NCBI GenBank assembly: GCA_963756875.1
Contig: CAVWPA010000003.1
Location: 1,216,001-1,280,000 of the forward strand
Direction of reading: 5' to 3'
DNA: 64,000 bases
Origin: an uncultured Verrucomicrobiae bacterium
GTDB lineage: Bacteria; Verrucomicrobiota; Verrucomicrobiia; Chthoniobacterales; UBA10450
The notes beneath the pieces are model-generated. The model was not told the origin of the DNA. It saw nothing but the letters and a program-made list of their open reading frames with translations, and ran no database searches. Shown here piece after piece: positions 4,750 through 58,609 of this stretch (the stretch's first letter is position 1; the number at the start of each line of letters is the position of its first letter). The position numbers were made by a program, and so were the translations under genes.

Positions 4750-6258
4750 TTAAACGCTCGCTTTTACGACGACGCGCATCCCGTCGGTTTGCACGACTGT
4801 GATTGGCGTACCGGGCGCTACGAATTCTCCCTCCGTTACCACATCAACGATATGGCCGGTAAAGCGGGCCTTGCCGCTCGGTCGCAACATGGACAGCGAA
4901 ACGCCCTGCATTCCCGGTGATAAATGGAGAGGCGTTACGAATTCGCGAGGCGCTCCGGCCAGCGAGGGTCCGGGTGGATTGGAAGTCGTGAGAGCAAAAC
5001 GCCGGTAAAAACTCGTGCGCGGCAAGTAGCGGGCCAACACGACGATTAGGATTGCGGCGCAGACGATCGCCAGAAGAAGATTCAACAGCGGGATCGCGAG
5101 CATCCGGCCCGTCGGAAAGAATGTTTCACCCGGATACCGATCGATCATAGCCCAGAGGAGAGAGGCCAGCATAAGGAAGACGCCGACTACGCCGAAGACG
5201 ATCGTGGAATGAGCGAAAAACAGAATTTCGATCAAGACCAAAACCAGACCCAGGACAAAGAGGCCGACCACTTCCCAACCGGCAAGGCCAGCCAGGTAAT
5301 GGCCGAGGAAAAAAAACGCGAAGCAAATCGCAGAAATCACCCCTGGCAATGTGGCCCCCGGAATTTTGAACTCAAGATACGCGCCGATGATGCCGCCAAG
5401 CAAAAGCAAGGGTGCCAGCTCGGTGATCCAAAACGCCAGCTTCTCAAAGCCTGTCGGATCAAGCGTAACGGCTCTTCCTTTCAGCCCGGCTTTCTGCATG
5501 AGATCCGGTATCGAATCAGCGATGCCGTCGGCCAGCAGCGGTTTGCCATTAATTTTCTCGGTTGCCTCCTGTGCGTTGAGGGTGAGCACGGTTCCTTTCG
5601 GGTGAATCACTCGCTTCCCGATCTTGACCGCCTTGTCCTTGTTCATGAACGCCTCGCCGATATCGGGATTGTGTCCGTTTCGGATAGCTGTGCCGCGAAC
5701 AAGGGCGGACCAGTATGAGATTGTCTTCTCGCGTTCGGTTGCTGGAAGATCCTGGCCGCCCGCGAGGACGGGCGCCGCGGCGCCGATCGCGCTGACCGGC
5801 GCCATGTAAATATGCTGGGTGGCCAGCGCGATCAGCGAGCCGGCCGATCCCGCATTGGAATTGATGTACGTGTAAGTGGGAATCGTCGCGTGGTTCAGAA
5901 CGTTCGTGATATCCTCTGCGGCGTCGAGCCGTCCGCCATACGTATTCATTTCAAAGATAATCGCCGACGCTCCGTTGCTCTCCGCCTCCTTCTCGGCCCG
6001 GCGCAAAAACATAAAAAGCGAAGGCGAGATCTCGCCGCGCAACGGGACCACCACCACCTCGCCCTTATGAATGATCTCGCGTGCCTGCGCAGTTGTCGGC
6101 GTTGCGAGCAACATCGCAGCTGCGCCAAGCGCGAGGGCAAACTGGAGGGACGACCTCTCTCCGAGCCGGAGGCTCATCCGAGCCAGAGGCCGTGTCGTCC
6201 CATTATTTTTGGGACGCACCGGAGTGCCTCTCTCCAACATCGACATTAATTTTTTCAT
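4750..6258 (-). CDS. NfeD family membrane-bound serine protease (ClpP-like)
   Basis: NTYGG, AGSAGSLIALA, IGAAAPV, membrane block, C-terminal LRPSGKARF..VDVVTEGEFV OB-fold; signal region carries a palindromic repeat. Confidence 0.9.
   Translation of the reverse strand: MKKLMSMLERGTPVRPKNNGTTRPLARMSLRLGERSSLQFALALGAAAMLLATPTTAQAREIIHKGEVVVVPLRGEISPSLFMFLRRAEKEAESNGASAIIFEMNTYGGRLDAAEDITNVLNHATIPTYTYINSNAGSAGSLIALATQHIYMAPVSAIGAAAPVLAGGQDLPATEREKTISYWSALVRGTAIRNGHNPDIGEAFMNKDKAVKIGKRVIHPKGTVLTLNAQEATEKINGKPLLADGIADSIPDLMQKAGLKGRAVTLDPTGFEKLAFWITELAPLLLLGGIIGAYLEFKIPGATLPGVISAICFAFFFLGHYLAGLAGWEVVGLFVLGLVLVLIEILFFAHSTIVFGVVGVFLMLASLLWAMIDRYPGETFFPTGRMLAIPLLNLLLAIVCAAILIVVLARYLPRTSFYRRFALTTSNPPGPSLAGAPREFVTPLHLSPGMQGVSLSMLRPSGKARFTGHIVDVVTEGEFVAPGTPITVVQTDGMRVVVKASV
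6143..6236. repeat. REP-like palindrome family B (TGGAGGGAC...TCCA), in-frame in nfeD N-terminus
   Basis: Shares TGGAGGGACGACCTC / CGTGTCGTCCCA / GGGACGC with the intergenic copy at 34614-34674. Confidence 0.8.
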
Positions 6259-6327
6259 TGTTTGGAAACCGCCGCGGCGCCGGGTAAGTTTGACATCGCT
6301 TCCCAAATCAAACGAGCGGAAAATCCA

Positions 6328-12594: not shown

Positions 12595-12700
12595 TCAGGC
12601 ACGAATATTAGTCGGCAGGCAATTTCAGCAAATGATTTTGCCTGAGCGGAAATGCCGACTGATGTTGTTACCCTGTTGGTAGCTGGGGCCGTGGTCCCTC

Positions 12701-12779
12701 TGGAGGGGCGATCTCTGTGTCATCCCATTCATTGATTTGTGGATCGCAATTGAGGGACGGGACAGAGCCCGTCCCTCCA
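12701..12779. repeat. REP-like palindrome family B, intergenic
   Basis: TGGAGGGGCG...GTCATCCC...GGGACGGGACAGAGCCCGTCCCTCCA. Confidence 0.8.
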
Positions 12780-14437: not shown

Positions 14438-17368
14438 GTGATGACATCCGCGCAGATCAGACAATCGTTCCTCGATTTCTTTCGCGGGAAGGGGCACACG
14501 ATCGTGCCTTCGTCCCCGCTGATGCCCGATTCGCCGAATCTGCTTTTCACCAACGCCGGCATGAACCAGTTCGTTCCGATTTTTCTCGGACAACAAAAGC
14601 CGCCCTGGACTCCACCGCGCGTGGTCGACACCCAAAAGTGTATCCGCGCGGGCGGCAAACATAACGATCTCGAAGACGTCGGGCTCGACACGTATCACCA
14701 CACGTTCTTCGAGATGCTCGGCAACTGGAGCTTCGGCGATTATTTCAAGAAGGAAGCGATTGAATGGGCGTGGGAACTGGTGGTCGATCGCTGGGAATTT
14801 CCGGCGCAACGTCTTTACGCCACCGTTTACAAACCCGGCGCCGGTGAACCAAGCGAATTCGATCAGGAAGCGCACGATTGTTGGGCCCGATTGTTTCGCG
14901 ACGCCGATCTCGATCCGGCCGTTCACATCGTAAACGGCGGCAAAGCCGACAATTTCTGGATGATGGGCGATACCGGACCGTGTGGTCCATGCTCAGAGGT
15001 ACACGTCGATCTTACGCCGGAGGGCGACACGCGCGGCGCGCTGGTGAACAAGAACGATCCGCGCTGCATTGAGATTTGGAACCTGGTTTTCATCCAGTTC
15101 AACGCTCAACCTGTAGCCGGGGTTGGTGACCCCGGCCGGGTCGAGTATGTCCCGCTGGGGGCGCGGCACGTCGATACCGGGATGGGTTTCGAGCGGGTCA
15201 CCGCGATCGTTCAAGGCACAAAAAACCTCAGCGATTTTTCCGGCACAATTTCCAATTACGAAACGGACATCTTCCGTCCGATTTTCGACGAGTTGGAAAA
15301 ACTCAGTGGGAAGAAATATGCAAGCACGCTGCCTGATTCTCCGGATCGGGGAGCGCACGCGCCCTCGCGTGCAGCGGTTGGCGCCTCGCCAAGCGCATCC
15401 GGCGAGGCGCCGGATGCAACACCCGAGGCGGGTGTGCTCCCCAGAAACGAGCAGGAAAAGATCGACGTGGCGTTTCGCGTGATCGCCGATCACATCCGCG
15501 CGCTCAGTTTCGCGATTGCCGATGGAATTATTCCTTCGAACGAAGGGCGCGGCTATGTTTTGCGCCGGATCCTGCGCCGCGCGGTCCGCTATGGCCGCAC
15601 CCTCGGGTTTCACGAGCCGTTCTTTTTCAAACTGGTCGACACTGTGGCAAAAACAATGGGCGACGTTTTTCCGGAGGTCCGCGCCAAACGAAACACGATT
15701 AAGGAGGCAATTCACCGTGAGGAAGAAGCGTTTAACAGAACGCTGGATGAGGGGATTCACATGTTCGATGCGGCGATGGTGTTCGATGCGGAGAAGGCAA
15801 AGACGGGGCTTTCAGTTGAGAAAGCCGTTTCTGGCGAGTTCGCTTTCAAACTCTACGATACCTACGGATTTCCTCTGGATTTGACGGAACTGATGGCGCG
15901 GGAGCGCGGGCTTACTGTCGACGTGGTCGGCTTTGAGAGACTGATGGAAGAACAGCGCGAACGCGCGCGCAAAGCCCAGAAGAAGGAGGCGATCAGCGTT
16001 GAGCAGGGGAAGTTGACGGCGGCTCCGACGAAATTCCTTGGCTACGATTTTCTCGAGACTGAGGCTGTCGTGGAGACAGTTTTGTCCGGGAAAAAGCCCG
16101 ACGAGGTGAACGTTGTTCTCGATCAAACGCCGCTCTATGCGGAGATGGGCGGACAGGTCGGCGACCGCGGTTTGCTTCATGTCCCAGGACACGATCGCAC
16201 CGAAGTCGGTCAACTTCGCGTCATCGATACGCAAAAACGAGGCGACGTTTTTGTTCATCGAGCGACGCTGACCAAGGGGCGCGCGCCGGAGCCGGGTGAA
16301 GCGGTGCGGGTCTCGGTCGATGCCGAACGACGCCGCGTGATTCAAGGACATCATACGGTCACGCATCTGTTGCATTGGGCGCTGCACGAAGTCGTCTCGC
16401 GCGACGCCGTGCAAAAGGGGAGTTACGTCGGTCCTGACAAGTTGACGTTCGATTTCAGCAGTGCGCCCCTCACGCCGCAACAGAAGCGTGACGTGGAAAG
16501 ATTGGTGAACGAGAGAATCCGCGACGGTGCGCCGGTTTCATGGACCGAGATCCCGTACAAGGAAGCGAAACAGCGCAAGGACATCATCCAATTTTTCGGC
16601 GAAAAATACGGAGATACGGTCCGCGTATTGCAAATCGGCGGGACACCTCGCGAACTGGACGGTTATTCGATGGAGTTATGTGGTGGAACGCATGTGAGAT
16701 CGACAAACGAAATTGGGCCGTTCCGGATCGTGAAGGAAGAAGCGATCGCCGCGGGAATTCGCCGGATCGAAGCGGTCGCGGGCGAGGCGACGCGTGCGTG
16801 GGCCAGACAGGAAGCGGCTCGGCAAGAGGAGAGGTTCGAAACGCTAAGGCGCAAAAAGACCGATTTGCCGCCGATGCCCGGTTTTATGGATGAAGCGGAA
16901 ACATCTGTGATGCTGGAACAGATTGATGCGCGAGCGGCACATTTGGGAAAAGCAGATCTCGATGTCCGCGAGTGGGAAAAGAAGACTGCCAAAGCGAGCG
17001 AGGCAGACCTGAGAAGCCGCGCCGCTGAGATCGCAAGCGAACTGGCGTCGTCGCATGCTGGAAAACATTCATTAGTGGCAGAAGTGCCGGACGGAAACGG
17101 CAAGTTGCTTCAGGCGATTGCCGACGTGCTGAAGTCGCAATTCAAGGGACCGATTTTTCTTGCCGGCGCGGCGGAAGGTCGGGCGGCGTTAGTCGTCGTG
17201 GTTCCAAAAGAGCTCACGTCGAAGTTTCAAGCGAACAAGATTATTCAGGCGGTTGCGCCAATTGTTGGCGGCAAAGGCGGTGGCCGGCCGGAAAACGCTC
17301 AAGGCGGCGGCACCGACACGAGCAAGATCGCGGAAGCATTGGCGAAAGTGCGGGAGCTGTTGCGCTGA
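14438..17368 (+). CDS. alaS: Alanine--tRNA ligase
   Basis: LLFTNAGMNQF, HHTFFEMLGNWSFGDYFK, VDTGMGFER, HTVTHLLHWAL, ELCGGTHV, GGKGGGRP; carries two in-frame palindromic inserts. Confidence 0.99.
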   Translation: MMTSAQIRQSFLDFFRGKGHTIVPSSPLMPDSPNLLFTNAGMNQFVPIFLGQQKPPWTPPRVVDTQKCIRAGGKHNDLEDVGLDTYHHTFFEMLGNWSFGDYFKKEAIEWAWELVVDRWEFPAQRLYATVYKPGAGEPSEFDQEAHDCWARLFRDADLDPAVHIVNGGKADNFWMMGDTGPCGPCSEVHVDLTPEGDTRGALVNKNDPRCIEIWNLVFIQFNAQPVAGVGDPGRVEYVPLGARHVDTGMGFERVTAIVQGTKNLSDFSGTISNYETDIFRPIFDELEKLSGKKYASTLPDSPDRGAHAPSRAAVGASPSASGEAPDATPEAGVLPRNEQEKIDVAFRVIADHIRALSFAIADGIIPSNEGRGYVLRRILRRAVRYGRTLGFHEPFFFKLVDTVAKTMGDVFPEVRAKRNTIKEAIHREEEAFNRTLDEGIHMFDAAMVFDAEKAKTGLSVEKAVSGEFAFKLYDTYGFPLDLTELMARERGLTVDVVGFERLMEEQRERARKAQKKEAISVEQGKLTAAPTKFLGYDFLETEAVVETVLSGKKPDEVNVVLDQTPLYAEMGGQVGDRGLLHVPGHDRTEVGQLRVIDTQKRGDVFVHRATLTKGRAPEPGEAVRVSVDAERRRVIQGHHTVTHLLHWALHEVVSRDAVQKGSYVGPDKLTFDFSSAPLTPQQKRDVERLVNERIRDGAPVSWTEIPYKEAKQRKDIIQFFGEKYGDTVRVLQIGGTPRELDGYSMELCGGTHVRSTNEIGPFRIVKEEAIAAGIRRIEAVAGEATRAWARQEAARQEERFETLRRKKTDLPPMPGFMDEAETSVMLEQIDARAAHLGKADLDVREWEKKTAKASEADLRSRAAEIASELASSHAGKHSLVAEVPDGNGKLLQAIADVLKSQFKGPIFLAGAAEGRAALVVVVPKELTSKFQANKIIQAVAPIVGGKGGGRPENAQGGGTDTSKIAEALAKVRELLR
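15348..15442. repeat. REP-like palindrome family A, in-frame in alaS
   Basis: GGGGAGCGCACGCG...GGCGCCTCGCC...GGCGAGGCGCC...GTGCTCCCC; same termini as the intergenic copy 52335-52497. Confidence 0.85.
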
Positions 17369-19961: not shown

Positions 19962-20100
19962 GTCGATCTTTGCAGCTAAATGCGCGCCACGTCCGCAACC
20001 TTCCGCCAAGGATGGGGCGCACCAGAAGATCGCCTAGAAACTTAAGGTTGACCGCCAAGATCGGACAATGCCACGATTCGCGACGGCAAAAGCCATCCGG

Positions 20101-21722
20101 ATGCCTTCCAAACTTTTCCAAACCAAAAGTCCAGAGCTTCTGATTCGCGAATCGCAGCAGGCCGATCGCAGGATGAAGCGCTCACTCAACGTGCTGGATC
20201 TTACCTGCCTTGGCATCGGCGCGATCATCGGCGCGGGCATCTTCGCGCTTGCCGGCACCGCTGCGGCGGGCGAGGCCGCGCAAGTCGGCGAATCCATTGT
20301 CAAAACGCCGGTGCTCAATTTTATCATCGCATTTCTTCACCATAGCGACCTCGTCTTCGGCCGGCCTGCGGCGGGACCGGCGGTTGCCGTTTCGTTCGTT
20401 GTGGCCGCCATTGCGTGTGGCTTTGCCGCGCTTTGTTACAGCGAGCTCGCGGCCATGATTCCCGTTTCCGGGTCGGCTTACACTTACTCGTATGCCACGC
20501 TCGGCGAGATTATCGCCTGGATCATCGGCTGGGATTTGATTCTGGAATATGCGGTCGGAAACATGGCCGTGGCGAAAGGGTGGTCGGATTATTTTGTAAA
20601 ACTGCTCTACAGCTTGAGCCACGGCGCCATCAGGCTTCCTCTTTGGCTCGTGACGGACCCGTCCACGGCTGCAACCAAGCTTTCCCAAGGCGGTGAAGCT
20701 ATTCAGGTACTATTCGCCGTCCGCCCTGCCGCATATCTTCGGATATCCCATCGCTCTCGATCTTCCCGCATTGCTGATCGTAGCCGCGGTAACAGTTCTT
20801 CTCATCTACGGCATTCGCGAAAGCGCTACGACGAACACGACGATCGTGTTGATCAAGGTCGCTGTGGTGGTTTTCGTCATTGCCTTTGGAGCCTTCATGG
20901 TCCACCCGACAAACTGGCGTCCGTTTGCTCCCAGTGGATTTGGCGGCGTTATGAGTGGTGCCGCGATCGTCTTTTTTGCGTTCATCGGATTCGATGCGAT
21001 TTCGACTACCGCCGAGGAAACCAAGAATCCGCAACGCGATTTACCGATCGGGATGATTGTCGAGTCTCATCATCTGTACCGTGCTCTATGTGCTCATGGC
21101 CGCGGTGCTTACCGGCATCAAAAAATATACCGTCTATCTTGGGGACTCTGCTGCGGTGGCGACCGCGTTCGCCAGCAAACCATGGGCGCAGGCGCTTGTC
21201 AGCGCCGGTGCGCTTGCCGGCCTCAGCTCTGTCCTGCTCGTCTTTCAGCTTGGTCAGCCCCGCATTTTCATGGCGATGGGGCGCGACGGTCTGCTCCCGC
21301 AATATTTTTCGCGCATTCATCCACGCTACCGCACGCCGTATATCACTACGATCTGGACTGGCGTTGTGGTGGGCGGAGTTGCCATGTTGACCGATATCGG
21401 TTCGTTGGCCGACCTAACGAATATCGGAACACTTTTCGCGTTTGTGCTGGTTTGCGCCGGTGTGATTGTCCTGCGCCGCAAGGATCCGGCCCGCCCGAGG
21501 CCGTTTCGTGTTCCGTTCGTTCCAGTTTTCCCGGTGCTCGGCGTGATATTTTGCGTTGCCCTGATGCTCAGCCTGCCGTTGGAAACATGGTTCCGATTCT
21601 TTGGCTGGCTGGTTATCGGCTTGTTGATTTATTTTCTCTACAGCGTCCGGCACAGCAAACTTCGCCTCGGCATTGATGCCGGCCCGACCGAAGACGTTTC
21701 TCCGCCGATCATCAAACCATAG
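20101..21722 (+). CDS. APC family amino acid permease (two apparent frameshifts near 20705 and 21062)
   Basis: GIGAIIGAGIF, SGSAYTYSY, FFAFIGFDAISTTAEETKNPQRDLP, GQPRIFMAMGRDGLLP, NIGTLFAF lie in three successive frames. Confidence 0.85.
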
Positions 21723-27497: not shown

Positions 27498-27590
27498 AGT
27501 GAAAGTTTGCTGGCTTGATTAAATAAGTCTTGAGCGGCCAAGCGCAAGCAGCTACTTATCGAGCCGGTTCTTTGCGAGCTTAAAAAAAGA

Positions 27591-28088: not shown

Positions 28089-30164
28089 ATGCAAAATCGT
28101 CCAGGATCTGTTTTTGTCCGGGGGAGCGCGCGCGTCTCGCGTGCTGGTTTTGGCCTCTGGCCAAAACATACTTTGCTTGTGCCAGCAATGCGGTCGCGCA
28201 CGCATTTATTGCGCGGTACCGTTTTTAGAAAGTTCGTTTCGGCGCGACGCCGAAACCAGCACGCGGGACGCGTGCGCTACCCAAAGATCGGGAACACGAT
28301 CTCTCTCGGTTTAGCGTTCGTCGCCGTTACCGGGGCGTTGCACTGCATCGCGCAGCAGCCGTCGCCATCGCCAGGCGAAGCCCAGGCCGAGCCGGTCGTT
28401 GTTTCGGCAACCAGATTCGACATTCCGCTCGATCAGTCGCCCGCATCGATCAGCGTTGTCAGTTCCCAGGATCTCGATCAAAGGCAGATCGATCGCGTGG
28501 CGGACGCGTTGCGCGAAGTGCCCGGGCTTTCGGTCGTTCAAACTGGAACACAAGGCCAGCTCACTTCCGTTTTCATGCGCGGACTTCCGAGTGAAGATCT
28601 GCAGGTTCTGCTCGACGGCATACCGATTAATCAGGGCCTGTCGGGGGCGTTTAATTTTGCCGACCTGACAATTGACGATATCGACCGCATTGAAGTTGCG
28701 CGGGGTCCGCAAAGTACGCTCTACGGACCGCGCTCGCTCGCGGGGGTCATTCAACTTTTTACGAGGCAAGGCACCGGAACACCCAGTGTTACTCTGAGCA
28801 CCGAGGCAGGAAGCTACGATACATTCCGCGAAGCGCTCCAGAGCGACGGGAGAATCGGCGATTTCGATTACGCGCTAGGGGCGAGTCGCATCGACACGGA
28901 TAACGCGCGGCCGAATAACGACTATCGCAACAGCGCGGCCACTGCGGACGTAGGCTGGTCGCCTGACGCACATCTGCGAATTGGAAGTTTGTTCGTCTAT
29001 TCGGAAAGCGAAACCGGAAACCCGAATTCGATCTTCGATCCGAAGCCGATCGATCATTTTTTGACCGAGCATTGGCTGATTGGGCCGCATTTCGATGTTC
29101 GGATCGCGGATTGGTGGGATCACAAGTTGATTTTCGATTACGATCACGAACGCCAGGTAAACAACCCAAACCAGGATGGATTCGTCGGACCTACGCGGGC
29201 CCTTTTTGAACGCACAACAATCGATTATCAAAACAACCTGCGGCCCACCTCGTGGCTCACGCTTACCAGCGGGCTGTTTTACAACACGATCAAGGCCGGG
29301 CAGGAACGTCCATTTGTCTCGCAAGCATTTGGACCGCAGCCAAAGTTCATTGGCGACGAGGTTCAAGAGAATGCGGTTTTTGCCCAGGCTACGGTGAATA
29401 TTCGGAATTTTATTCTCGTAACGGGCGGGCGCCTCGATGAGTTCAATCAGTTCGGCGATGTTTGGACGTATCGAGTTGCGACCAGCTACAAAATCGACAG
29501 AACAAACACCACGTTGCATTCAAGTGTCGCCACCGGATTCAGTCCGCCGAGCAGTCAGGACAAGATTTTTGGCAACAACTTCAATCTCAAGCCTGAAAAG
29601 GATTTTGGCTGGGACATGGGATTCGAACAGCGACTCTGGGAGAACAGGGTGATCGCCGGGGCCACATATTTTCACAATGATTTGTCGAACGTTATTGGGT
29701 TTAACGGCCAGTTTAAAACGCTCAACCTTGGCGCGGCCGAAACTCAGGGCTTGGAGACGGAATTACGCGTCCAGCCGACTCCCGATGTTACGCTGAAAGC
29801 GAGCTACACTTATCTCGAAGCTGAGAAAACATCCCTGGCGGATATTTCGCAGTTGCAGGGCGCGCGTTTGCCGCGGCGGCCGAGAAATGAAGTTTATGTA
29901 TCCGCGTCGTATCTTTGGTGCAAGAAACTGCGCACCACCATCGAGGCCAAATGGGTCAACGCGCGCGAGGAACTGAATTTCGGCGGACCGAATTTCGACA
30001 TCGAGGACTACAACTTCGTCAATTTCGCTTCGGAATATGAAATCAACTCGCACTTCTCCGTCTTCGGCCGGATCGACAATCTGACGAACGAGCATTACGC
30101 GGAGGTGTTCGGATTTCCCGCGCCAGGCCGCGCCGCGTACGCGGGAGTAAAGCTGCGGTTTTGA
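28089..30164 (+). CDS. btuB: TonB-dependent receptor, probable cobalamin transporter
   Basis: VVVSATR TonB box, DALREVPG, VLLDGIPIN, IDRIEVARGPQSTLYG, RIDNLTNEHY, terminal F; B12 riboswitch upstream. Confidence 0.85.
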   Translation: MQNRPGSVFVRGSARVSRAGFGLWPKHTLLVPAMRSRTHLLRGTVFRKFVSARRRNQHAGRVRYPKIGNTISLGLAFVAVTGALHCIAQQPSPSPGEAQAEPVVVSATRFDIPLDQSPASISVVSSQDLDQRQIDRVADALREVPGLSVVQTGTQGQLTSVFMRGLPSEDLQVLLDGIPINQGLSGAFNFADLTIDDIDRIEVARGPQSTLYGPRSLAGVIQLFTRQGTGTPSVTLSTEAGSYDTFREALQSDGRIGDFDYALGASRIDTDNARPNNDYRNSAATADVGWSPDAHLRIGSLFVYSESETGNPNSIFDPKPIDHFLTEHWLIGPHFDVRIADWWDHKLIFDYDHERQVNNPNQDGFVGPTRALFERTTIDYQNNLRPTSWLTLTSGLFYNTIKAGQERPFVSQAFGPQPKFIGDEVQENAVFAQATVNIRNFILVTGGRLDEFNQFGDVWTYRVATSYKIDRTNTTLHSSVATGFSPPSSQDKIFGNNFNLKPEKDFGWDMGFEQRLWENRVIAGATYFHNDLSNVIGFNGQFKTLNLGAAETQGLETELRVQPTPDVTLKASYTYLEAEKTSLADISQLQGARLPRRPRNEVYVSASYLWCKKLRTTIEAKWVNAREELNFGGPNFDIEDYNFVNFASEYEINSHFSVFGRIDNLTNEHYAEVFGFPAPGRAAYAGVKLRF
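28120..28282. repeat. REP-like palindrome family A, in-frame in btuB N-terminus
   Basis: GGGGAGCGCGCGCGTCTCGCGTGCTGGTTT...AAACCAGCACGCGGGACGCGTGCGCTACCC. Confidence 0.8.
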
Positions 30165-34677: not shown

Positions 34678-35748
34678 GTGATGACAATCCTCGCTCTCGA
34701 AACCTCCTGTGACGAAACCGCGGTCGCAATTCTGCGCGACGCGGGCGGCCCGTCTGCGCCGGAGCTGCTTGCCAGCGAAGTCGCGTCGCAAGTCTCCGAG
34801 CACGAGAAATACGGTGGCGTGGTTCCGGAGATTGCCTCGCGCAACCATCTCGTGCACGCCCCGCGTCTGCTCGAACGAGTGACCCAGACGGCAGGAGTCG
34901 ACCTGGCAAATGTCGATGCATTCGCGGCGACGAGCGGACCGGGGCTGGCCAGCTCGCTCATGATTGGCGCCTCCATCGCCAAAGGTCTCTCCATCGGTTT
35001 TGGCAAACATTACCTTGCCATCAACCATCTTGAGGGCCATTTGCTCTCGCCGTTTTTCGGAAGTGGCATCGGCTTCCAGCCGATGTCCGGAAGATCGGCT
35101 GGAAGCCGATGCCACGTGTCGCTGATCGCAAGCGGCGGACATACCATGTCGATCTTGGTTCGTGGCGTCTGTGATTACGAAGTGATCGGCCGGACTGTGG
35201 ACGACGCCGCGGGAGAAGCCTTTGATAAAGTGGCCAAGCTTCTCGGGCTCGGTTATCCGGGCGGCCCGGAGATTGAAAGACTCGCGCGCGATGGCGACTC
35301 AAAGCGCTTCGATCTTCCGCGCAGTATGCTCGATTCGCAGAATTTCAGCTTCAGCGGACTAAAAACAGCGGTGCGATATCTGTTGCCGAAAATTGTGGGG
35401 CGTCCGTGGCGGACGCCCTACAAACTGGCAGAGAAGGACCTTGCTGATCTCTGCGCGTCATTTCAACAAGCGATCGTGGACGTGCTCGTGCGCAAAACAA
35501 TTGCCGCGGCTAAAAAATGTGGCGTCGATCTCGTAACGGTGAGCGGCGGCGTCAGTTGCAATCAGGAACTGCGCCGGCAAATGCACGACGCTTGCAAACG
35601 TGAAGGGTTCGAATTCAAAAGCGCGGAACCATGGCTCTGCACGGATAACGCCGCGATGATTGCTTTCGCCGCGTGGCTGCGAGTGCAAAACGGCTTCGAG
35701 TCGAGTGTGACCGACGAAATCGATCCGAATCTCGCGCTGGCGCTGTAG
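34678..35748 (+). CDS. tsaD: tRNA threonylcarbamoyladenosine biosynthesis protein
   Basis: LETSCDETAVA, GGVVPEIASRNH, NHLEGH, SGGHT, DDAAGEAFDKVA, FSFSGLKT, CTDNAAMI; two in-frame palindromes. Confidence 0.97.
   Translation: MMTILALETSCDETAVAILRDAGGPSAPELLASEVASQVSEHEKYGGVVPEIASRNHLVHAPRLLERVTQTAGVDLANVDAFAATSGPGLASSLMIGASIAKGLSIGFGKHYLAINHLEGHLLSPFFGSGIGFQPMSGRSAGSRCHVSLIASGGHTMSILVRGVCDYEVIGRTVDDAAGEAFDKVAKLLGLGYPGGPEIERLARDGDSKRFDLPRSMLDSQNFSFSGLKTAVRYLLPKIVGRPWRTPYKLAEKDLADLCASFQQAIVDVLVRKTIAAAKKCGVDLVTVSGGVSCNQELRRQMHDACKREGFEFKSAEPWLCTDNAAMIAFAAWLRVQNGFESSVTDEIDPNLALAL
35063..35115. repeat. Palindrome in-frame in tsaD
   Basis: GTGGCATCGGCTTCCAGCCGAT...ATCGGCTGGAAGCCGATGCCAC, 22-bp perfect inverted arms. 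Confidence 0.85.
35391..35424. repeat. Family C palindrome in-frame in tsaD
   Basis: AATTGTGGGGCGTCCGTGGCGGACGCCCTACAAA. Confidence 0.8.
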
Positions 35749-35804
35749 CGGTTTTGCTTCGCGAAACGCAACGTCTGCAACTGGCACTCCGTGGTTGCGG
35801 TGGG

Positions 35805-35855: not shown

Positions 35856-35859
35856 ATTT

Positions 35860-36742
35860 TCAGGTACTCGCGCTCGAGGAGATAATTTGCCAGCGCATGC
35901 AGCGGTTCGGCTTTCGGTCCGAAGATCGACAACGCGTTGTGCGCCCGCTTTGTTAGGCGACGCGCCTCAGCGCGCGATTTTTCCAGGCCAATCACGGCCG
36001 GGTAGGTTGCCTTTTTCGCTGCAATATCTTTTCCCGCGCTCTTCCCAAGCTTCTCACTCGTTTGCGTAACATCGAGAATGTCGTCGATGACCTGGAATGC
36101 GAGGCCCAGCGCCCGGCCAAATCTCGTAATCGCGCCGAGCTTTTTTTGGCTGGCGTTGGCGCTCATCGCTCCGAGCCGGACTGACGTTGTTAGAATAGCA
36201 GCCGTCTTATTTTCGTGAATATAGCGAAGCTGCGCGCGGTTCGCGTGGCCCCCTTCCGCTTCGAGATCGGCCACCTGGCCGGCAATCAGTTTTTGGCTGC
36301 CTGCGGCGATTGCGACTTCGCGCAGCAGGATCTGCATGTTGTAGCGCGGCGCGGGCTGGGCGCGCGAGACAATCTCGAACGCAATCGTCAACAATGCGTC
36401 GCCGGCAAGCACAGCGATGCCGTCGCCGAATACCTTGTGGCAGGTCGGGCGACCGCGCCGGAAATCGTCGTTGTCCATGCTTGGGAGGTCATCGTGGACA
36501 AGCGAATAGGTATGAATGCATTCCATGGCACAGGCGAGCGGCATCGCCTTGTCGGTTTTGCCGCCGCAGGTTTCGGCTGCCGCGAGACAGAGGATGGGCC
36601 GCAACCGTTTTCCGCCGGCGAACAAGCTGTAGCGCATCGCCTTGTGGATCGTTGCGGGCCTGGTCTTTTCTTTTGGCAGATAACGGTCCAGAGCGCGATC
36701 GATCAGTTTCTGGCGCGAGCGGAGATAGGTTTTGAGATTCAT
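35860..36742 (-). CDS. ispA: Polyprenyl (farnesyl/geranylgeranyl) diphosphate synthase; true stop probably near 35860
   Basis: GGKRLRP, SLVHDDLPSMDNDDFRRG, AFQVIDDILD, GKSAGKD; homology ends at LEREY, where GAGTACCTGA is one base off a TGA. Confidence 0.9.
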
Positions 36743-46376: not shown

Positions 46377-46474
46377 TCGCGGTGGCCATTATCAATCCCA
46401 AAGCCAACCTTACCCTCTGCCCGGCGCAGCCTTTGGCGAAGGCGAGACCTCCGATCGCTGATCTTCGTGGCGAT

Positions 46475-46546
46475 CGTTCCCGGGGAGAATCGAACTCCCA
46501 TTTAAGGTTTAGGAAACCTCCGTTCTATCCGTTGAACTACGGGGAC
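46475..46546 (-). tRNA. tRNA-Arg(CCT), hybrid gene at the element junction
   Basis: Minus strand GTCCCCGTAGTTCAACGGATAGAACG-GAGGT-TTCCTAA-ACCTT-AAAT-GGGAGTTCGATTCTCCC-CGGGAAC-G; C3.A70 mismatch. Confidence 0.93.
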
Positions 46547-46565
46547 AAATGGCGATTTTTCTTGG

Positions 46566-46589
46566 TTGTGTCACCCGTTTGTGTCACCC
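46566..46589 (+). repeat. Tandem TTGTGTCACCC x2, candidate integrase arm sites (left)
   Basis: Identical 11-mers at 46566 and 46579. Confidence 0.8.
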
Positions 46590-46599
46590 TGGCTTTCCG

Positions 46600-47725
46600 A
46601 TGGCCAAAAAGGCGGCGAGTCATAACGGGAAAAACGGTTCAAGAAGGTCGGGCCGAATCTATATCGAGATGCAGCCGGTCGTTATTATCTGCTCGTCAAA
46701 AAGAGCGGCAAGCAGTTTCGCCGGAGCCTAAAGACGAAGGACCCTGCGCTAGCGAAACGGCGATTGCGGGAATTTCAGGACCGGGCGGGCCGACTAAATA
46801 CGGATGGAACCAATAGTTCGATCCGATTTGATGACTTCGCAGAGATGGCTCGCAGCCAAGACGGCTGAACTTAAAGCATCCTCAGCGTATCGACGTGCAA
46901 GCGTACTTAAAGCAACTCGGCCGTTTTTCAACGGCCGTTTGGTGCGAGCGATCGGCGCGAAGGAGATCGAAGCATGGAAGATTAAACGTGGAGCAACGAT
47001 TTCCGCTCGCAGTTGGAATATCGAAGTCGAGACGCTGAAACAAATTTTCGCGTACGCAAAGGACACGTTGCGAATTATCCTGGATAATCCTGCACGATTG
47101 TTGAAGCGAAAGAAAGAACCGAAAGCGGGAATTGTTATTCCGTCGAAAGAACAATTCCGCGCTTTGGTGAATGAGCTGCGGACCGGCCATCGGCAACTGG
47201 AGAAGCGGCGGATTCGTGGAATTCCTGGCATACTCGGGATGTCGGCAAGGCAAGCGAAACACGTCCGGTGGCGCGATATCAAACGAACTTGGGACGTTGC
47301 TAATTACAGGCGGCGAAACTGGAACAAAGAATTATGAGGCGCGAACGATTCCATTATTCGCTCCTCTTGCGTCGACTTGTTGGAGTCAATGAGGACGCGA
47401 AAAACGATTGGACACTGATGACGCATGAATTTTCCAGATTGGAGATGCACGGCTTCAAATCATCCGAGCATGTGAACGTCTCGGATTGCCTCGCTTTGGT
47501 CATCATACAATGCGCCATTTTTTTTGTTCGAACGCAATCGAAGCGGGATGTGATTTCAAGGTTATTGCCGGTTGGCTTGGACATAAAGACGGGGGAGTGC
47601 TGGTCGCGATGACATACGGTCACCTTCGAAGCGAACACAGTGCTGCGATGGCGAAGCGAATTACCTTCGACGCCGTATCAGACGAACCTGACACCGATCG
47701 TTCGATCATTCCTCTGCCCGTATGA
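46600..47725 (+). pseudogene. Tyrosine recombinase/integrase with several frameshifts
   Basis: Pieces in successive frames: KVGPNLYR..YYLLVK..QFRRSLKT (arm-binding), FLAYSGCRQG (R), GTKN (K), HTMRHFF (HxxR), WLGHKDGG...TYGH (H, Y). Confidence 0.88.
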
Positions 47726-48563
47726 GTGAAGGCAGGGAGTTGATGGAGTGGATTCGCGGCAAGTGGTATGAGCCGATCATCCGACGCGTTGAGACGTTCG
47801 AGGACGAATCGGAGGTTTTTCAGGAAGTCGAGTCGGTAACTCGAGACCTGACTCTGCGGAATGGGCTTTCGAATGCGTTATAAGGGGAGTGCGTCCATTT
47901 GGCGAAGCTAGCGGGGATTCCCTTTAGCGGCACCTTCGGCGCGAAGGAAGTGGGGGCCATTAATTGGTTCAAAGACTGCGATCTGTAAAGCGATGGCGGA
48001 AATCATAGGGTGACTCAAAGCTGGACGCCCGCAGATTGGGAGAAGTTCGTAGATGCTTGGGAGAAAGGAGGTCGATTGAATACGCGCAAAGGACGTGGAA
48101 GAGGTTCGCCGACAAATTGCATCCGGAGTTTGAGGCAATTCGGAAGTTCGCCGTGACTGAGGCGGCTAAGCAAAGCTATCTCGAAGACCTTCAATTCATC
48201 ACTGGGTTGCAAAAGGGAATGACGCTCATGGTTGAGCTGCGGAAGACAATACGTAAAGCCGTAACGAAGAGCTGGAATTCGACACCCAGAAACGGATGGC
48301 GGTTTATCTGTTTGCGATGTGCGAATGGGAGGCTATCGAAGCGAGGACGTGGGGAGTTTAGTTGGCCGGAACTGTCGGAAGCCTTCTCTGAGGCTTTCGA
48401 TCATCGGATCGAAATCGACGAAGACGCGTTCAAGAAGATACTGCAACGGTGCGGCCTTGGCGTGGGCAAAGCCTGGGCGGAAGATTCCTCTGAGGTAGTA
48501 AATCGGGACAGCGGACCGGCGTCCATGTCCTTAGTGCGCCTGCAAAGATGGGCGCATGAATGA
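47722..48563 (+). pseudogene. Hypothetical element protein, frameshifted
   Basis: ATGA overlap with the integrase stop; coding-like pieces continue across frames up to the HTH gene. Confidence 0.45.
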
Positions 48564-48763
48564 ACAGACAAAACTAATACAAACTCCGAAGTTCGCGCTT
48601 AATCGCGTGGAAGCGGCGGAGGCGCTAAGCGTAAGTCCGGCGACATTAGATCGCTTGGCGAATCGAGGTCTGATCCTGCCGTGTCGAGCGACAGGGCGGC
48701 CTCGTATCGATCAAGGAGATCGAAAGGTTCCTCAGCTCAACAACGCTCTTGGGCGAACTGTGA
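48556..48763 (+). CDS. Excisionase-like HTH protein (frameshift near 48700)
   Basis: LNRVEAAEALSVSPATLDRLANRGLI; natural ending SIKEIERFL..GEL-TGA is in another frame. Confidence 0.75.
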
Positions 48764-49746
48764 GCGCGGAACAGGGGCCAGTTGGAAGGCGGGAGAGCTC
48801 GGATGCCGCCGCGTCAGCGGCGGCGCCGAGCCTTCCTTGTCTTAAGAAGGATAACTGCATCGTTAATGGCAGATATCGAGCTGTCTTTGTGGCACAGGAA
48901 AACATTCGTCTCTACATCTGGAAGTTCGGAGAGCAGAACGTTGGGTCATTGACTGTTACAGCTGCGGACTGCTTGGAGTCTTCAGAGTTTCAAGAAAAAT
49001 GGCATTCGTATCTGAATCCGTTGAAAAAACTGTTTCCAACGGGCATGTGGACACGGGAGCGGCAGCCGCGAAGCGGTAACTGGCACGCGCACGCGATTGT
49101 AAATGTCGGATGGGATATCAAGACGAATTTTCCGCGGGACCAGGTTGAGCGGCGGTTCTATGCGAACGTCAATCCGCGGTTGAGGGAATTGTGGAAGGAT
49201 CTGCGAAAGACCGCGCTATCACATGGCCTCGGTCGCGTGGAGTTGTTACCGTTGAAATACGGCGGCGATGCTTGCGCTCGTTATTTTACCAAATACCTAA
49301 CAAAAGCTCTCGGTTCGGAAAAAGCGGTTGGAGAAGAGAAGTGCAGGCTTTTCAGTGTTTGGGGCGGCGTTCGGTTTGTTCATTCGCGGTTCAGCTTTCT
49401 TTCGTCGCGCATTATTCAAAAGCGAAAGCAATGGCTCACCGAGCAGTTGGGATATTCTGATACATCGGAGTTAAAAAAGCTTTCGCAGCATTGGTGGTTT
49501 CATTACGGCAAGGCTTTGTGCGACGTGATTATGCCGGAGGATTTTTACAAAGTTGGACCGCCGGGCAATCGCCAGTTTGATGATGTGGGGTTGCGTGCCT
49601 GGGAGCGCGATTGGGCGGCTTGGCCCGGAGAACCTTCAGCGGACGTGGTGACGCGATCACAATTCAACTTGTTCTATGATATTGGTTTGCGTCTGTTCGG
49701 CCGGAAATCCAGGCAGGCTTTGCAATTACGCGATGTATTTCTTTGA
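48760..49746 (+). CDS. HUH-superfamily rolling-circle replication initiator
   Basis: Motif I LTVT, motif II ERQPRSGNWHAHAIV, motif III YFTKYLTK; GTGA overlap with the HTH stop. Confidence 0.8.
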   Translation: MSAEQGPVGRRESSDAAASAAAPSLPCLKKDNCIVNGRYRAVFVAQENIRLYIWKFGEQNVGSLTVTAADCLESSEFQEKWHSYLNPLKKLFPTGMWTRERQPRSGNWHAHAIVNVGWDIKTNFPRDQVERRFYANVNPRLRELWKDLRKTALSHGLGRVELLPLKYGGDACARYFTKYLTKALGSEKAVGEEKCRLFSVWGGVRFVHSRFSFLSSRIIQKRKQWLTEQLGYSDTSELKKLSQHWWFHYGKALCDVIMPEDFYKVGPPGNRQFDDVGLRAWERDWAAWPGEPSADVVTRSQFNLFYDIGLRLFGRKSRQALQLRDVFL

Positions 49747-49837
49747 GAAGCGGTAGCCCGGCAAATGAATGAGGCGCATGTTATAGAGCGTGAGGTCAAC
49801 GCATCTGAACAGCTGTTCCCGCCTAGATTTTTTGGCT

Positions 49838-49872
49838 ACACCTTCTTTGGGCGATGCCAAAAAGGTGTTTTT
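49838..49872 (+). terminator. Terminator after rep
   Basis: ACACCTTCTTTGG...CCAAAAAGGTGT stem followed by TTTT. Confidence 0.6.
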
Positions 49873-49895
49873 ATTACGGCTCGCTTACGCTTTTT

Positions 49896-50093
49896 TTAAA
49901 GTTCTAGCACTTTCTTAGCTTTCGCTACATCAGCGTCTGAGCCTTCAATCACCAATGTTGAGTCGCGGTTGATCGCGATTTTTAGATTGCTTAATCCAGC
50001 GCCGGTGAGCTGAGAGCGAATTTGTTCTTCCAACTGTTCGTACATTGCCCGCTCAAAATCGCCGGAGTTAAAATCCATTGAGAACGTAATCAT
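49896..50093 (-). CDS. Small hypothetical protein (65 aa), element cargo
   Basis: Clean ORF 8 nt downstream of the 157 aa gene; mixed alpha/beta-looking sequence. Confidence 0.55.
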   Translation of the reverse strand: MITFSMDFNSGDFERAMYEQLEEQIRSQLTGAGLSNLKIAINRDSTLVIEGSDADVAKAKKVLEL

Positions 50094-50101
50094 GGACAGG
50101 A

Positions 50102-50575
50102 TTACCTTTTCTTCGCTTCCCGCACAAGTTCCCGCACAGCCGGAAGACGCGGAACCTTTCCAGTGGATTCAAGTATCTTTTCCACCTTCCGACGAACTTT
50201 GTCTCGCTTGCGCTCATCGGGAATCGACAAAATTTCCTCGGCATGCGAATCGGGTATGCGATCTAGGCGTTCTCCTTTGGTATAGTACTTGGCAAAACTA
50301 CGCGCGTTGTCGCAACTCTTACGACTCGCCAAGCCTTTCAAGGCTAGGGTGCTGACCAGTCCGTTGAGCAATCTAGATTTTCCAAATTTCTTTTCGTATT
50401 CAATCAGCAGATCCCCTAGGCGGCTTCGGGTGTGGTCTTTTGCGCGACAGAACTCACATACAGCTTCGATAAAGTCGCCCTCCGAAATCGACTGATCGTG
50501 GAGCTGAATGAAGGTGTTCGCTACAATAAACTTGGACCACAGTATGTTTTTGACTGGCGGGTTGTTGTTTTTCAT
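50102..50575 (-). CDS. Hypothetical DNA-binding protein, weakly LmbU/ParB-HTH-like
   Basis: RLGDLLIEYEKKFG...NARSFAKYY...R...SHAEEI...VRELVRE pattern; basic. Confidence 0.6.
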   Translation of the reverse strand: MKNNNPPVKNILWSKFIVANTFIQLHDQSISEGDFIEAVCEFCRAKDHTRSRLGDLLIEYEKKFGKSRLLNGLVSTLALKGLASRKSCDNARSFAKYYTKGERLDRIPDSHAEEILSIPDERKRDKVRRKVEKILESTGKVPRLPAVRELVREAKKR

Positions 50576-50663
50576 TTCCCGGTAACGGTATCCCGTTGAC
50601 GGGGAAACGTCAAGTGGGCTTTCGGGATTCGGTTACATATCACAAATTCTTTGCGCCGTAGTT

Positions 50664-50686
50664 TTGTGTCACCCTTTGTGTCACCC
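50664..50686 (+). repeat. Tandem TTGTGTCACCC x2, candidate integrase arm sites (right)
   Basis: Identical 11-mers at 50664 and 50676. Confidence 0.8.
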
Positions 50687-50813
50687 GGTGGGAAAAAACA
50701 GCCGATTCCTGATTATTGCTGAGGACGCTGATCGGTTTGTAAGTGTCAAGCGAGTGCGGGCTTGCGTATGCATGATGATGCCTAACGAATCCTGCAAAAA
50801 CGGCCGTTTCGCC

Positions 50814-50851
50814 TTAGGAAACCTCCGTTCTATCCGTTGAACTACGGGAAC
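50814..50851 (-). repeat. Displaced 5' half of tRNA-Arg (att site)
   Basis: Minus strand GTTCCCGTAGTTCAACGGATAGAACGGAGGTTTCCTAA; identity ends exactly at the anticodon loop. Confidence 0.92.
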
Positions 50852-50997: not shown

Positions 50998-51721
50998 ATG
51001 CGCGTTTTCGTAATTACCGGCGCGGGCGTTTCCGCTGAAAGCGGGATCCCGACTTTTCGCGGCAAGGACGGTTACTGGCGGAATCTCGATCCGATGACAA
51101 CTGGCAACGCCGGAAGCGTTTGCGCGCGATCCGCAACTAGTCTGGGAATGGTACAGCGAACGCCGCGACAAAATTCGCGCGGCGAAACCGAATGCCGCGC
51201 ATCAGGCGATCGTGAGATTATCGACTCTCGCGCGCGAGTTCCTGCTTTTGACGCAGAACGTTGATGATCTGCACGCGCGCGCTGGGTTCGAAGGCAAAAA
51301 GATTCCGAAAGAACAGATCGTGCAGATTCATGGCGATATTTTTGTCACTCGATGTTCGCGATGTGAATTGGAGAGGGAGGATCATGATCATGATCATGAG
51401 CAAGATCATGAGGGGGTGCCGACGTGCTCCGAGTGCGGAGGGGTGATGAGGCCGGGAGTGGTTTGGTTTGGCGAGCAATTGGATCCTAAAAAGATTGGGA
51501 GGGTGGAAACTTATCTGGGCCGGGGTCCATGTGATCTGGTGATGGTCATCGGCACGACGGCGCTTTTTGGTTACATTGTCGATTGGGCGATGCGGGCGCG
51601 CGGGAAACATGGCGAGCTCATTGAAGTAAATCCGAGCGAGACACCGATATCGTCGTTCGCGACGCGACTGGTGCGCGAACCTGCGGCAGTGGCGTTGCCG
51701 CGTATCGTTTCCGAATTGTAG
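50998..51721 (+). CDS. cobB: NAD-dependent deacylase, sirtuin (frameshift near 51100)
   Basis: [36 protein letters not shown]...[20 protein letters not shown]. Confidence 0.9.
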
Positions 51722-51787
51722 GGCAAGCGCATCGCTTGTCGCTTGCCACATTCTGGTTCGGCAACCGGAGCGGTCGCCCTACAATTC
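51713..51787. repeat. Family C palindrome providing both convergent stop codons
   Basis: GAATTGTAGGGC...GCCCTACAATTC. Confidence 0.85.
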
Positions 51788-52207: not shown

Positions 52208-52334
52208 CTCGGAATCAAGATCTCACGTGACAGAGTTTTTTACAGGGGAAAGCAGTTTGCTTTCATCCGAGCTGGACTGGCATTGCGAGACCCTGGTGCG
52301 TGAGTAGTCCCCCACGTGAACCGCGAGGCTCTCT

Positions 52335-52497
52335 GGGGAGCGCACGCGCCTCGCGTGCTAACGCGAGTCCGGCTCGGACCGATGGCGCCCTCGCCGTCGC
52401 GAACTTTCCCCCCTTTTCCGCTCGAGTCTTGCAGGTATCCCGCAGAGTTCGTTGCGGCGAGGCGCCGCAACCAGCACGCGAGGCGCGTGCGCTCCCC
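52335..52497. repeat. REP-like palindrome family A, intergenic full-length copy
   Basis: GGGGAGCGCACGCGCCTCGCGTGCT ... AGCACGCGAGGCGCGTGCGCTCCCC, 25-bp perfect inverted termini. Confidence 0.9.
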
Positions 52498-52675
52498 GGA
52501 GCTGAGCCGCTTTGCCTCGCTCTGTGGATGCGCTCCCTCGGGCGCCTAATCCATCACGGCGACAGCGCCTTTGCCTCGGCTACGGCGCGCCATGGACCGA
52601 CGTGGCTACAGCCGCAGCTAGGCCGACACCGCGTTCGAAATGATTACCCAGAGGATGAGGAACAGTGACATAACC

Positions 52676-56896: not shown

Positions 56897-56902
56897 AATT
56901 CC

Positions 56903-58609
56903 ATGCAACTTCCGCGCATGCCCAAAGCGTGTATCGCGACTCTGTCGCCGCTCCTTCTGGTGTGTTCGATACATTGCTGTCTGGCGACGGGGCCGGCGGT
57001 AGATCGGCATATTGTCATCGTGGCGTGGGATGGAATGCGTCCCGATTTTGTCAGCGAAGAGAATACGCCCACGCTTTGGAAGCTTGCGAGGGAAGGGGTC
57101 ATGTTTCGTAACCATCACGCGGTCTACTTGAGCGCGACCAATGTGAACGGCACGGCGATCGCGACCGGAGTTTACCCGGATCACAGCGGCATCATCGCCA
57201 ATCACGAATATCGCCCCGGGATCGACAGCAAGAAGCCGGTCGATATCGAAGCTGCGCCGGTCGTAACGAAGGGCGACAAAATTTCGAATGGAGAGTATAT
57301 CGCGGCACCGACGGTCTCAGAGCTGGTGCAGAAATCCGGCGGCCGCACCGTGATTGCTGCCAGCAAAACGGTCGGGCTCCTCGAAGATCGGGATGTGGAT
57401 GCTGGCAACGAACCACCCTCACCCGGCGCTTCGCGCTTGCCGAGCCGTAGGTCGCCGCGGCGACCGAAGGCTGGTCCTCCTCTCCCTCAGGGAGAGGGTA
57501 GGGTGAGGGTTCCGGACCGTGGCCAGACTAAAGGTTGCGTCACGTTATTTGCCGGCGTGGCTAAACCCGACGGCGCCCTTGCGCCAATTATTGCCGCGCG
57601 CGGCCCGTTTCCCGCCTCCTTTTTGCAGAGGGACTATTGGACAACGAAGGCTCTGACCGACGTGCTATGGAAGAATGGCGTCCCGGAATTTTCGCTTCTT
57701 TGGCTGGGTGAACCCGACCTGACGCAGCACGAGACCGCGCCGGGGGCGCCGGCGGCGCTAGATGCGATTAAATCCTCCGATTCAAACCTGGGGATCGTTT
57801 TGGCTGCGCTCGATCGAGAACATGCGCGCGAAACGACAGATGTGTTCGTCGTTTCCGATCATGGCTTTTCGACAATCTCACGGGAAGTGAATTTGCCGAA
57901 AATACTGGCTGCCGCGGGATTCGATGTCAGAACAGAATTCAAATCCAAGCCGAAACCGGGCGAAATCATGATGGTCGGTGGCGGCGGCAGTGTCCTTTTT
58001 TATGTGACAGGAAATGAACCGGCGGTAATTCGCCGCCTCGTTGAGTTTCTTCAGCAATCCGATTACGCGGGCGTGATTTTCACGAAGAGCGCGATGCCGG
58101 GAACGTTCACGCTCGAGCAGGCGAAGATCGACAGTAAAGACGCGCCGGATGTGGTGATGTCGTTTCGCTGGAAAGGCGCGCTAAATCAGTTTGGCGTTCC
58201 GGGAATGATCGATGCCGACTGGCAGCGCGCGGCGGGGAAGGGGACGCACGCCACGCTAAGCCGATTTGACATGCACAACACGTTGATCGCAGCCGGCCCG
58301 GATTTTCGCCGCGGCGCGATGGACGATTTGCCGACCGGAAACGTCGATCTGGCGCCGACGATCCTCAAGATTCTTGAAATCCAAAACCCTCATCCGATGG
58401 ATGGCCGTGTTTTGTCAGAAGCGATGGTTGGGACAGATAAGGCAACGCCGGAATCGCAAACGACCACGATCGAAGCGACGAAAGAATTTCCATCGGTAAC
58501 CTGGCGTCAGACACTCCAGATCTCGCGTGTTGGATCCACGATCTATCTTGACGAAGGGAATGGCGAACCGCTTCCGGTCGAGAGAGTGGCGGCTGCGTCG
58601 CGTGATTGA
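56903..58609 (+). CDS. Alkaline phosphatase superfamily nucleotide pyrophosphatase/phosphodiesterase
   Basis: WDGMRPD, T nucleophile region SATNVN, EPDLTQH, VSDHGF, GTH, NVDLAPT; in-frame palindrome insert. Confidence 0.9.
   Translation: MQLPRMPKACIATLSPLLLVCSIHCCLATGPAVDRHIVIVAWDGMRPDFVSEENTPTLWKLAREGVMFRNHHAVYLSATNVNGTAIATGVYPDHSGIIANHEYRPGIDSKKPVDIEAAPVVTKGDKISNGEYIAAPTVSELVQKSGGRTVIAASKTVGLLEDRDVDAGNEPPSPGASRLPSRRSPRRPKAGPPLPQGEGRVRVPDRGQTKGCVTLFAGVAKPDGALAPIIAARGPFPASFLQRDYWTTKALTDVLWKNGVPEFSLLWLGEPDLTQHETAPGAPAALDAIKSSDSNLGIVLAALDREHARETTDVFVVSDHGFSTISREVNLPKILAAAGFDVRTEFKSKPKPGEIMMVGGGGSVLFYVTGNEPAVIRRLVEFLQQSDYAGVIFTKSAMPGTFTLEQAKIDSKDAPDVVMSFRWKGALNQFGVPGMIDADWQRAAGKGTHATLSRFDMHNTLIAAGPDFRRGAMDDLPTGNVDLAPTILKILEIQNPHPMDGRVLSEAMVGTDKATPESQTTTIEATKEFPSVTWRQTLQISRVGSTIYLDEGNGEPLPVERVAAASRD
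57416..57509. repeat. CCCTCACCC..CCTCTCCC..GGGAGAGGG-type palindrome in-frame in the phosphodiesterase
   Basis: CCCTCACCC / GGGTGAGGG termini, internal CCTCTCCCTCAGGGAGAGG and GGTCGCCGCGGCGACC hairpins. Confidence 0.8.

Follow-up and report, generated by a model that had tools for sequence, protein, structure and literature searches.

In-frame copies of several palindromic repeat families inside protein-coding genes of an uncultured Chthoniobacterales bacterium

Palindromes within genes of the window

The window analysed here is a stretch of 64,000 nucleotides from an uncultured Verrucomicrobiae bacterium of the Chthoniobacterales (contig CAVWPA010000003.1; G000:C3:1216001-1280000 in our own coordinates), and our subject is a set of seven palindromes lying in frame inside its protein-coding genes: two in alaS, two in tsaD and one each in nfeD, btuB and a phosphodiesterase gene. 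The study genome, G000, amounts to 2.69 Mb in three contigs and is 88% complete; the closest named relatives of its tsaD belong to Chthoniobacterales and other Verrucomicrobiota. An earlier note, drawn from the letters of the window alone, had listed the seven cases and placed four of them in families that also occur between genes. We could verify both statements: each palindrome folds as a hairpin within an open reading frame, the second alaS insert and that of btuB belonging to family A, that of nfeD to family B and the second of tsaD to family C. These letters follow the earlier note, the others (E, F, G) being labels coined in this analysis. The intergenic copies it named are also present, i.e. 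52331..52501 for family A, 12700..12779, 30166-30226 and 34614-34674 for family B, and for family C a dimer at 51713..51787 and further copies at 31387-31440 and 61862-61930. Two unpublished genomes, G007 (in the alaS tables) and G014 (an empty tsaD row), enter the counts given below, and the conclusions are independent of both.

The alaS gene (14441..17368, forward strand) is single-copy and intact, and scores 801 bits against a family cut-off of 457. Its first insert (15111..15135, forward strand) is a single hairpin of the GTAG type, read as VAGVGDPG. It brings the distance between conserved anchors to 37 residues, eight more than the 29 found in 27 of 28 readable relatives; G033 carries a near-identical insert. 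The second insert (15348..15442, forward strand; residues ~303-335) is a family A element made of two arms and a short spacer, whose right arm has one further, intergenic, copy. This site is readable in 25 relatives, four of the 29 rows being unreadable, and 11 of these show no palindrome; the others hold, as judged by eye, family A (6), a heptamer repeat (5), an F-like element (2) or family C (1).

Both inserts of tsaD (34681..35748, forward strand; an intact gene and the single match in the genome, 366 bits against a cut-off of 296) lie on the forward strand and fall in loops. At site 1 (35063..35115) an inverted pair of family F sits between helix 116-125 and strand 145-150 of the structural model, and sets the anchors 40 residues apart, where 24 of 29 relatives have 29-31; the remaining five are occupied, in three cases by F-like elements that stand in two frames. 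At site 2 (35391..35423), between helices 225-239 and 251-280, a family C hairpin is the collapsed form of a dimer present in two relatives. Here the interval is 38 residues, against a constant 27 in the 16 relatives out of 29 where the site is empty; the 13 others are longer, three by family C and two or three by another family. In the AlphaFold model of TsaD, with a mean predicted local distance difference test (pLDDT) of 85, both inserts are loops (pLDDT 40 and 69) of a fold predicted to be intact, and where AlaS and TsaD are aligned to solved structures, gaps appear at the inserts. A third variable loop of tsaD, near residue 20, was set aside, being not palindromic by eye.

Closely related genomes differ at these positions. 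At tsaD site 2, G101 carries an insert that its congeners G015 and G067 lack (clade support 100), and G080 carries one that is absent from G034 and G096; at site 1 it is G067 that is occupied, G015 and G101 being empty. Such congeners show that empty loops are filled freshly and independently.

In the phosphodiesterase gene (PF01663), a family G element with a nested hairpin (57414..57512, forward strand) adds 39 residues, so that 64 residues separate anchors that are 21-25 residues apart in 27 of 29 relatives. All seven palindromes of the window are missing from most orthologs, in agreement with the lineage specificity that the earlier note had expected.

The two remaining cases concern signal-peptide regions and are less certain than the other five. 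The family A element of btuB (28121..28282, forward strand; gene start at 28089) follows a conserved ribosome-binding site with its ATG and precedes the hydrophobic stretch of the signal peptide. Family A is found at the same place in 5 of 24 relatives; the congeners G036 and G001 differ in this respect, only one of them carrying it. Upstream, at 27551-27990, we noticed a cobalamin riboswitch which, at 22 bits (E 0.0015), stays under the gathering cut-off of Rfam because several repeat hairpins lie inside it; relatives carry different hairpins at these positions. In nfeD, a family B palindrome with a nested short module occupies the N-terminal (signal) region (6143..6236, reverse strand). The start used by relatives is at ~6258, with the palindrome just behind; as the element holds an ATG of its own, it is possibly partly untranslated, and translation through it is the least certain of all.

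Repeats across the genome and in a related genome

The intergenic DNA of G000 holds 1311 repeat segments in about 40 clusters. With a gene set from our own simple caller (2182 genes, 80% coding), a library of 1208 intergenic repeats matched 165 sites in called genes, against 3 for the reversed library; in-gene matches therefore exceed chance. Sites internal to genes number 117, in 94 called genes, and intergenic ones 777 (13% and 87% of sites), which corresponds to densities of 55 per Mb for genes and 1428 per Mb for the DNA between them, i.e. about 26-fold fewer in genes. The GTAG foot is a feature of family C and of the first alaS insert; the terminal inverted repeat (TIR) motif GGGGWSAS opens family A; families B and G have neither a GTAG foot nor an end of the GGGGWSAS type.

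We compared G000 with its relative G017 over 2.0 of 4.3 Mb (46%), which gave 908 aligned pairs of 77% mean identity; 45 of the 94 repeat-bearing host genes fall outside this comparison. Among 816 variable regions, 728 lie inside both called genes and were kept, the 88 others being upstream of a start. A repeat occurs in 48 of the 728 in G000, in 35 in G017 and in 18 in both, whereas controls gave 0 and 2 of 816. The 48 regions, in 39 genes, keep an open frame and are flanked by ortholog anchors. Repeats are present at 18 of the 32 places where the G000 protein exceeds that of G017 by at least 10 residues, which makes them a main source of new protein sequence in the group.

The hosts named through their G017 orthologs include MutS, UvrA, UvrC, PcrA, DnaE2, FtsK, LigD, IleS, LeuS, ArgS, SelA, Dxr, SucA, SucB, NuoN and RNase R; SMC, MutL, UvrB, DnaE, DnaX, ThrS, ThiC and PurL were named by eye. 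The uvrA gene (G000:C3:700925-705355) accumulates five or six inserts of three families, and its frame is broken close to the end of the gene, apart from these inserts. Such a list could suggest that the hairpins inside genes owe their retention to some use, for example as structures in DNA or mRNA or as binding sites for an enzyme: the hosts include replication, repair and translation genes (AlaS, TsaD, MiaB/RimO, RsmE, UvrA, MutS, RNase R), an apparent bias also remarked in the covered parts of PMC3733652, and insert DNA can outlast synonymous sites in conservation. On the other hand repeats are strongly depleted in genes, their presence is patchy among congeners and the families are interchangeable; moreover the hosts are long genes, with a median of 508 codons against 275. 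We thus regard a retained function as improbable.

Two further explanations bear on whether the inserts reach the protein at all. If they were removed from RNA or protein, as introns or inteins are, both their strong folding and the presence of large inserts in signal peptides, which look hard to tolerate, would be accounted for. However, removal at the RNA level would lift the constraints on frame and stops, yet compared with G017 proteins repeats are found at none of 37 frame-changing junctions and at none of 7 internal stops; the peptides also vary by family and by frame, and no common splicing motif was seen by eye. Removal appears very unlikely. Still less credible are decaying duplicate genes or assembly artefacts. 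The 37 frame-changing junctions, probably base errors, could point in that direction, but alaS, tsaD and metH have one match each in the genome, and the family cut-offs are passed by AlaS and TsaD, so that the non-functional duplicates which would have undone the earlier note's proposal do not account for alaS and tsaD; and near-identical inserts at the same sites in the independently assembled G033, G016 and G008 largely refute an artefact. Frame breaks of this kind occur in the window itself, two in an amino-acid permease gene (20068-21722) and one at the ispA stop (~35860); given the 37 junctions, they look like assembly base errors. The apparent C-terminal run-on of ispA through a repeat (35803-35861) was rejected as an insert, and looks like a one-base error at the stop.

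Candidate enzymes and whole RAYT cassettes

No mobilising enzyme was seen among the window's open reading frames, as the earlier note had stated, and searches of the whole genome with Pfam and NCBIfam models place all candidates outside. The genome contains nine genes for RAYTs, the transposases linked to repetitive extragenic palindromic (REP) sequences. Family A flanks two of them, family B two (the second by eye) and family C two; of the others, two are each flanked by another GTAG family and one by a rare repeat. The repeat that borders the latter gene (G000:C3:1591886-1592281) is 56 bases long, and makes up no sizeable family in the rest of the genome. By eye the RAYTs display the HUH motif and the catalytic tyrosine; five of nine pass the cut-off of NF047646, and the two A-type proteins score 78 and 71 against this cut-off of 80. 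Small GIY-YIG genes, three four-helix-bundle genes and five GxxExxY genes have further families on their flanks, made of hairpins, hexamers, heptamers and nonamers. In relatives, family G flanks 11 of 12 DUF559 loci; with PF04480 no DUF559 gene was found in G000. Flanking is an association, and that RAYTs mobilise the repeats beside them is what the known HUH enzymes would lead one to expect.

Taken together, these data make it probable that the inserts are in-frame copies of several families of the REP/REPIN type, copied by the enzymes whose genes they flank and kept where the host protein tolerates them. Within intact genes, the repeats occupy loops, linkers and signal-peptide regions. RAYTs would do the copying through single-stranded hairpins, and small GIY-YIG, DUF559, GxxExxY or four-helix-bundle proteins would do it for other families. 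Insertion might be roughly blind or loosely targeted, selection then filtering for an open frame and a tolerant position; a copy probably survives only if it leaves the frame open and its host protein accepts an extra loop. The inserted segments would be translated and nearly neutral, their translation and their mobility alike being deduced from sequence. Host codons at the junctions often look replaced, not duplicated, which would fit nick-and-copy repair better than a cut-and-paste event with target duplication; at the tsaD and alaS junctions no target-site duplication is visible by eye, in relatives that are only ~77% identical.

Several observations weigh against this explanation or its measures. 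The expectation that RAYT genes would be flanked by each family holds for A, B and C, with two genes each, but no cognate enzyme gene was found in the 88%-complete genome for families F and G or for the exact subtype of the first alaS insert. The family A insert of alaS is identical at 92 of 98 bases between G000 and G016, whereas adjacent four-fold sites are 33-56% identical: neutrality and vertical descent are insufficient here, and either a recent re-copying of a circulating variant or a constraint on the DNA is needed. Our gene caller is crude, which makes the density ratio approximate, and the library, drawn from intergenic copies, is biased towards the intergenic count. Finally the 117 in-gene sites include some false or weak matches, such as those in PlsX and in a short-chain dehydrogenase/reductase, both without length change.

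In addition to short elements, genes may hold a whole RAYT. One of the two A-type RAYTs of G000, together with its two arms, sits in frame in the genome's only MetH, where it occupies the linker that separates the methyltransferase domain from the pterin-binding one. The A-type clade occurs in 71 of 121 genomes of the family, and 87 of its 106 matches are in open frames of at least 400 residues. Among 54 loci examined, 13 are at AlaS ~residue 445, 13 in a RecG-like helicase, seven at MetH site 1, five at MetH site 2, five in a CarB-like and one in a ThrS-like protein, and 10 stand alone; the names RecG, CarB and ThrS were assigned by eye. At MetH site 2 (residues ~1176-1229) G000 has two arms and a short spacer with no RAYT between, while in five relatives (G025, G127, G036, G030 and G114) the arms come with a RAYT, position and frame being those of the G000 element. 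Small element and cassette are thus alternatives at one position. At the ThrS-like cassette site, G000 has a heptamer repeat.

Some side observations concern these hosts. AlaS ~residue 445, the cassette site of other relatives, holds unrelated inserts of ~50-120 residues without obvious palindrome in L012, L013, L024, L025 and L026. In G032 (G032:C11:8077-10932) and G114 (G114:C150) two RAYT domains share one open frame, apparently with both MetH sites filled. As for RecG, tblastn with a relative's protein recovered only the paralog Mfd in G000, a genome that is 88% complete.

These cassettes might suggest that in-gene family A elements are cassettes which lost their RAYT, or docks for the RAYT part. 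The proportion of A-clade matches in long frames and the two states of MetH site 2 speak for this, as does the fact that in-gene left arms of family A are mostly in the frame of the cassette (GSAR...). By contrast, no whole RAYT was seen at the second alaS site in the 25 readable relatives nor at btuB in 24, so that the alternation is not seen at the window's own family A sites; and the MetH states show alternatives, not a direction of change. Furthermore a preference for one frame is also seen in family E and in the VAGV-type family, which have no known in-frame RAYT; peptide composition can therefore explain the bias. An origin from cassettes is a possibility that we hold somewhat doubtful; it would concern family A only and would supplement, not replace, the copying of REP-type families by the enzymes they flank.

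A second proposal is that occupied loops act as landing pads, other families inserting into the resident hairpin or overwriting it. Four repeat kinds are found at the second alaS site, and family C or a different one at tsaD site 2. Eighteen regions, where 2.3 would be expected, bear repeats in G000 and G017 alike, which also points this way; in about six of them the genomes differ, by eye, in that a short hairpin is nested within an older element. However, most of the 18 carry the same family and were probably inherited; for this reason we rejected co-occupancy as a proof of overwriting. Only about three (UvrA twice, DnaE2 once) clearly differ in family, by eye. Besides, empty loops are filled directly, and a small number of tolerant loops per protein would also yield recurrent sites. 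We had also considered that targets mimic the elements, the empty sites of tsaD and alaS looking, by eye, like element ends; a position-weight test disagreed, and the idea was rejected. At five sites the cognate medians, i.e. the fraction of equal windows scoring as high, were 0.07, 0.78, 0.27, 0.32 and 0.32, one non-cognate pair scored 0.05, and element ends are not generally resembled by empty sites. Overwriting of occupied sites is plausible; as the general explanation, landing pads seem rather unlikely.

Both proposals can be merged, loops in essential proteins of the family being then shared docking sites where families overwrite each other, where the RAYT domain moves between arms and where peptide scars remain. 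This is tentative, and we would sooner expect it to be wrong. If it were true, this transposase lineage would be mainly a mobile translated domain of AlaS, MetH, RecG-like, CarB-like and ThrS-like proteins. Among related genomes, the lineage provides empty, small-element and whole-cassette alleles of one codon position, with a candidate enzyme beside its repeat. The origin of the inserts, and a possible derivation of REPs from RAYT cassettes, are thereby directly testable. In practice, the inserts, like the fused transposase domains, will mislead both annotation and the calling of start sites.

The window contains two other features. After a tRNA-Arg gene, a stretch of lower GC (46474-50850) is bounded by a 38-base direct repeat of the tRNA end (at 46509 and 50814) and holds a reading frame resembling, by eye, a replication protein (48556-49746); it is likely a small integrated element. 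Three tandem paralogous genes resembling those of outer-membrane proteins lie at 58699-61335, and a fourth with the same N-terminal motif at 2503-3231.

Comparison with known repeat systems

To our knowledge, palindromes within genes have been known for two decades without a mechanism. The earlier note had taken the window's elements for something like the Rickettsia palindromic elements (RPEs), and had implied that small non-autonomous elements writing peptides into proteins were new here. The lineage-specific in-frame segments in loops of intact single-copy genes are supported; the novelty and the RPE frame are not. RPEs are palindromes found in frame in housekeeping proteins, often in loops and N-termini, according to the covered parts of PMC3733652. 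Our comparison with them, made by description and not by sequence relationship, finds one likeness, in-frame insertion in conserved proteins without counterpart in orthologs. But cognate transposase genes are present here, most copies (87% of sites) are intergenic and the host, judged from its relatives, is not a reduced intracellular genome. By these features the window families are REP/REPIN or TIR-type elements rather than RPEs.

The closest precedent comes from the same phylum. Di Nocera, De Gregorio and Rocco (2013; PMC3733652, in the parts covered) list 70 intragenic REP rows for Opitutus terrae, of the families GTAG-17, -18 and -19, with UvrA, DnaE2, DNA ligase, PurL and SucB among the in-frame hosts. 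As in our genome, several families are involved, in frame. GTAG-17 even encodes VAGVGDPG, the peptide of the first alaS insert, the GTAG foot being common to both. The core observation was therefore already known in Verrucomicrobiota. The same parts of that paper describe REPtrons and TIRtrons, to which our nine RAYT genes, each with its own flanking repeat, can be likened; family A starts with the TIRtron motif GGGGWSAS.

The Ssn nucleases with their SRM/NTS hairpins (PMC11893778) offer another parallel: hairpin-flanked small GIY-YIG genes, and in-gene copies of such hairpins, occur in G000. Ssn-type hairpins differ from the families of the seven window cases, and the covered passages of that paper mention no in-frame or intragenic copies.

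The in-frame cassettes have less precedent. RAYT/TnpA-REP genes are described as stand-alone, and Quentin et al. (bioRxiv 10.1101/279083, as far as covered) discarded over-long proteins as fusions or annotation errors; unlike these, 87 of our 106 A-clade matches lie in long host frames. Fusion terms have no match in the part of PMC5581495 covered, and the covered parts of PMC3733652 contain no whole RAYT inside a host gene. The literature searched, mostly non-subscription, gave no account of Chthoniobacterales, of refilled loops or of a whole RAYT in housekeeping genes. Within that literature, what appears new is the filling of the same loops by different families among relatives, and the choice between whole cassette and small element at the MetH site. 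In the parts of PMC3733652 covered, inserts lie at different sites between species, except in recB of Xanthomonas. By contrast, in the lineage of G000 the same loops are refilled with different families, the RAYT cassette itself lies in frame, and families of the TIR, DUF559 and heptamer types take part.

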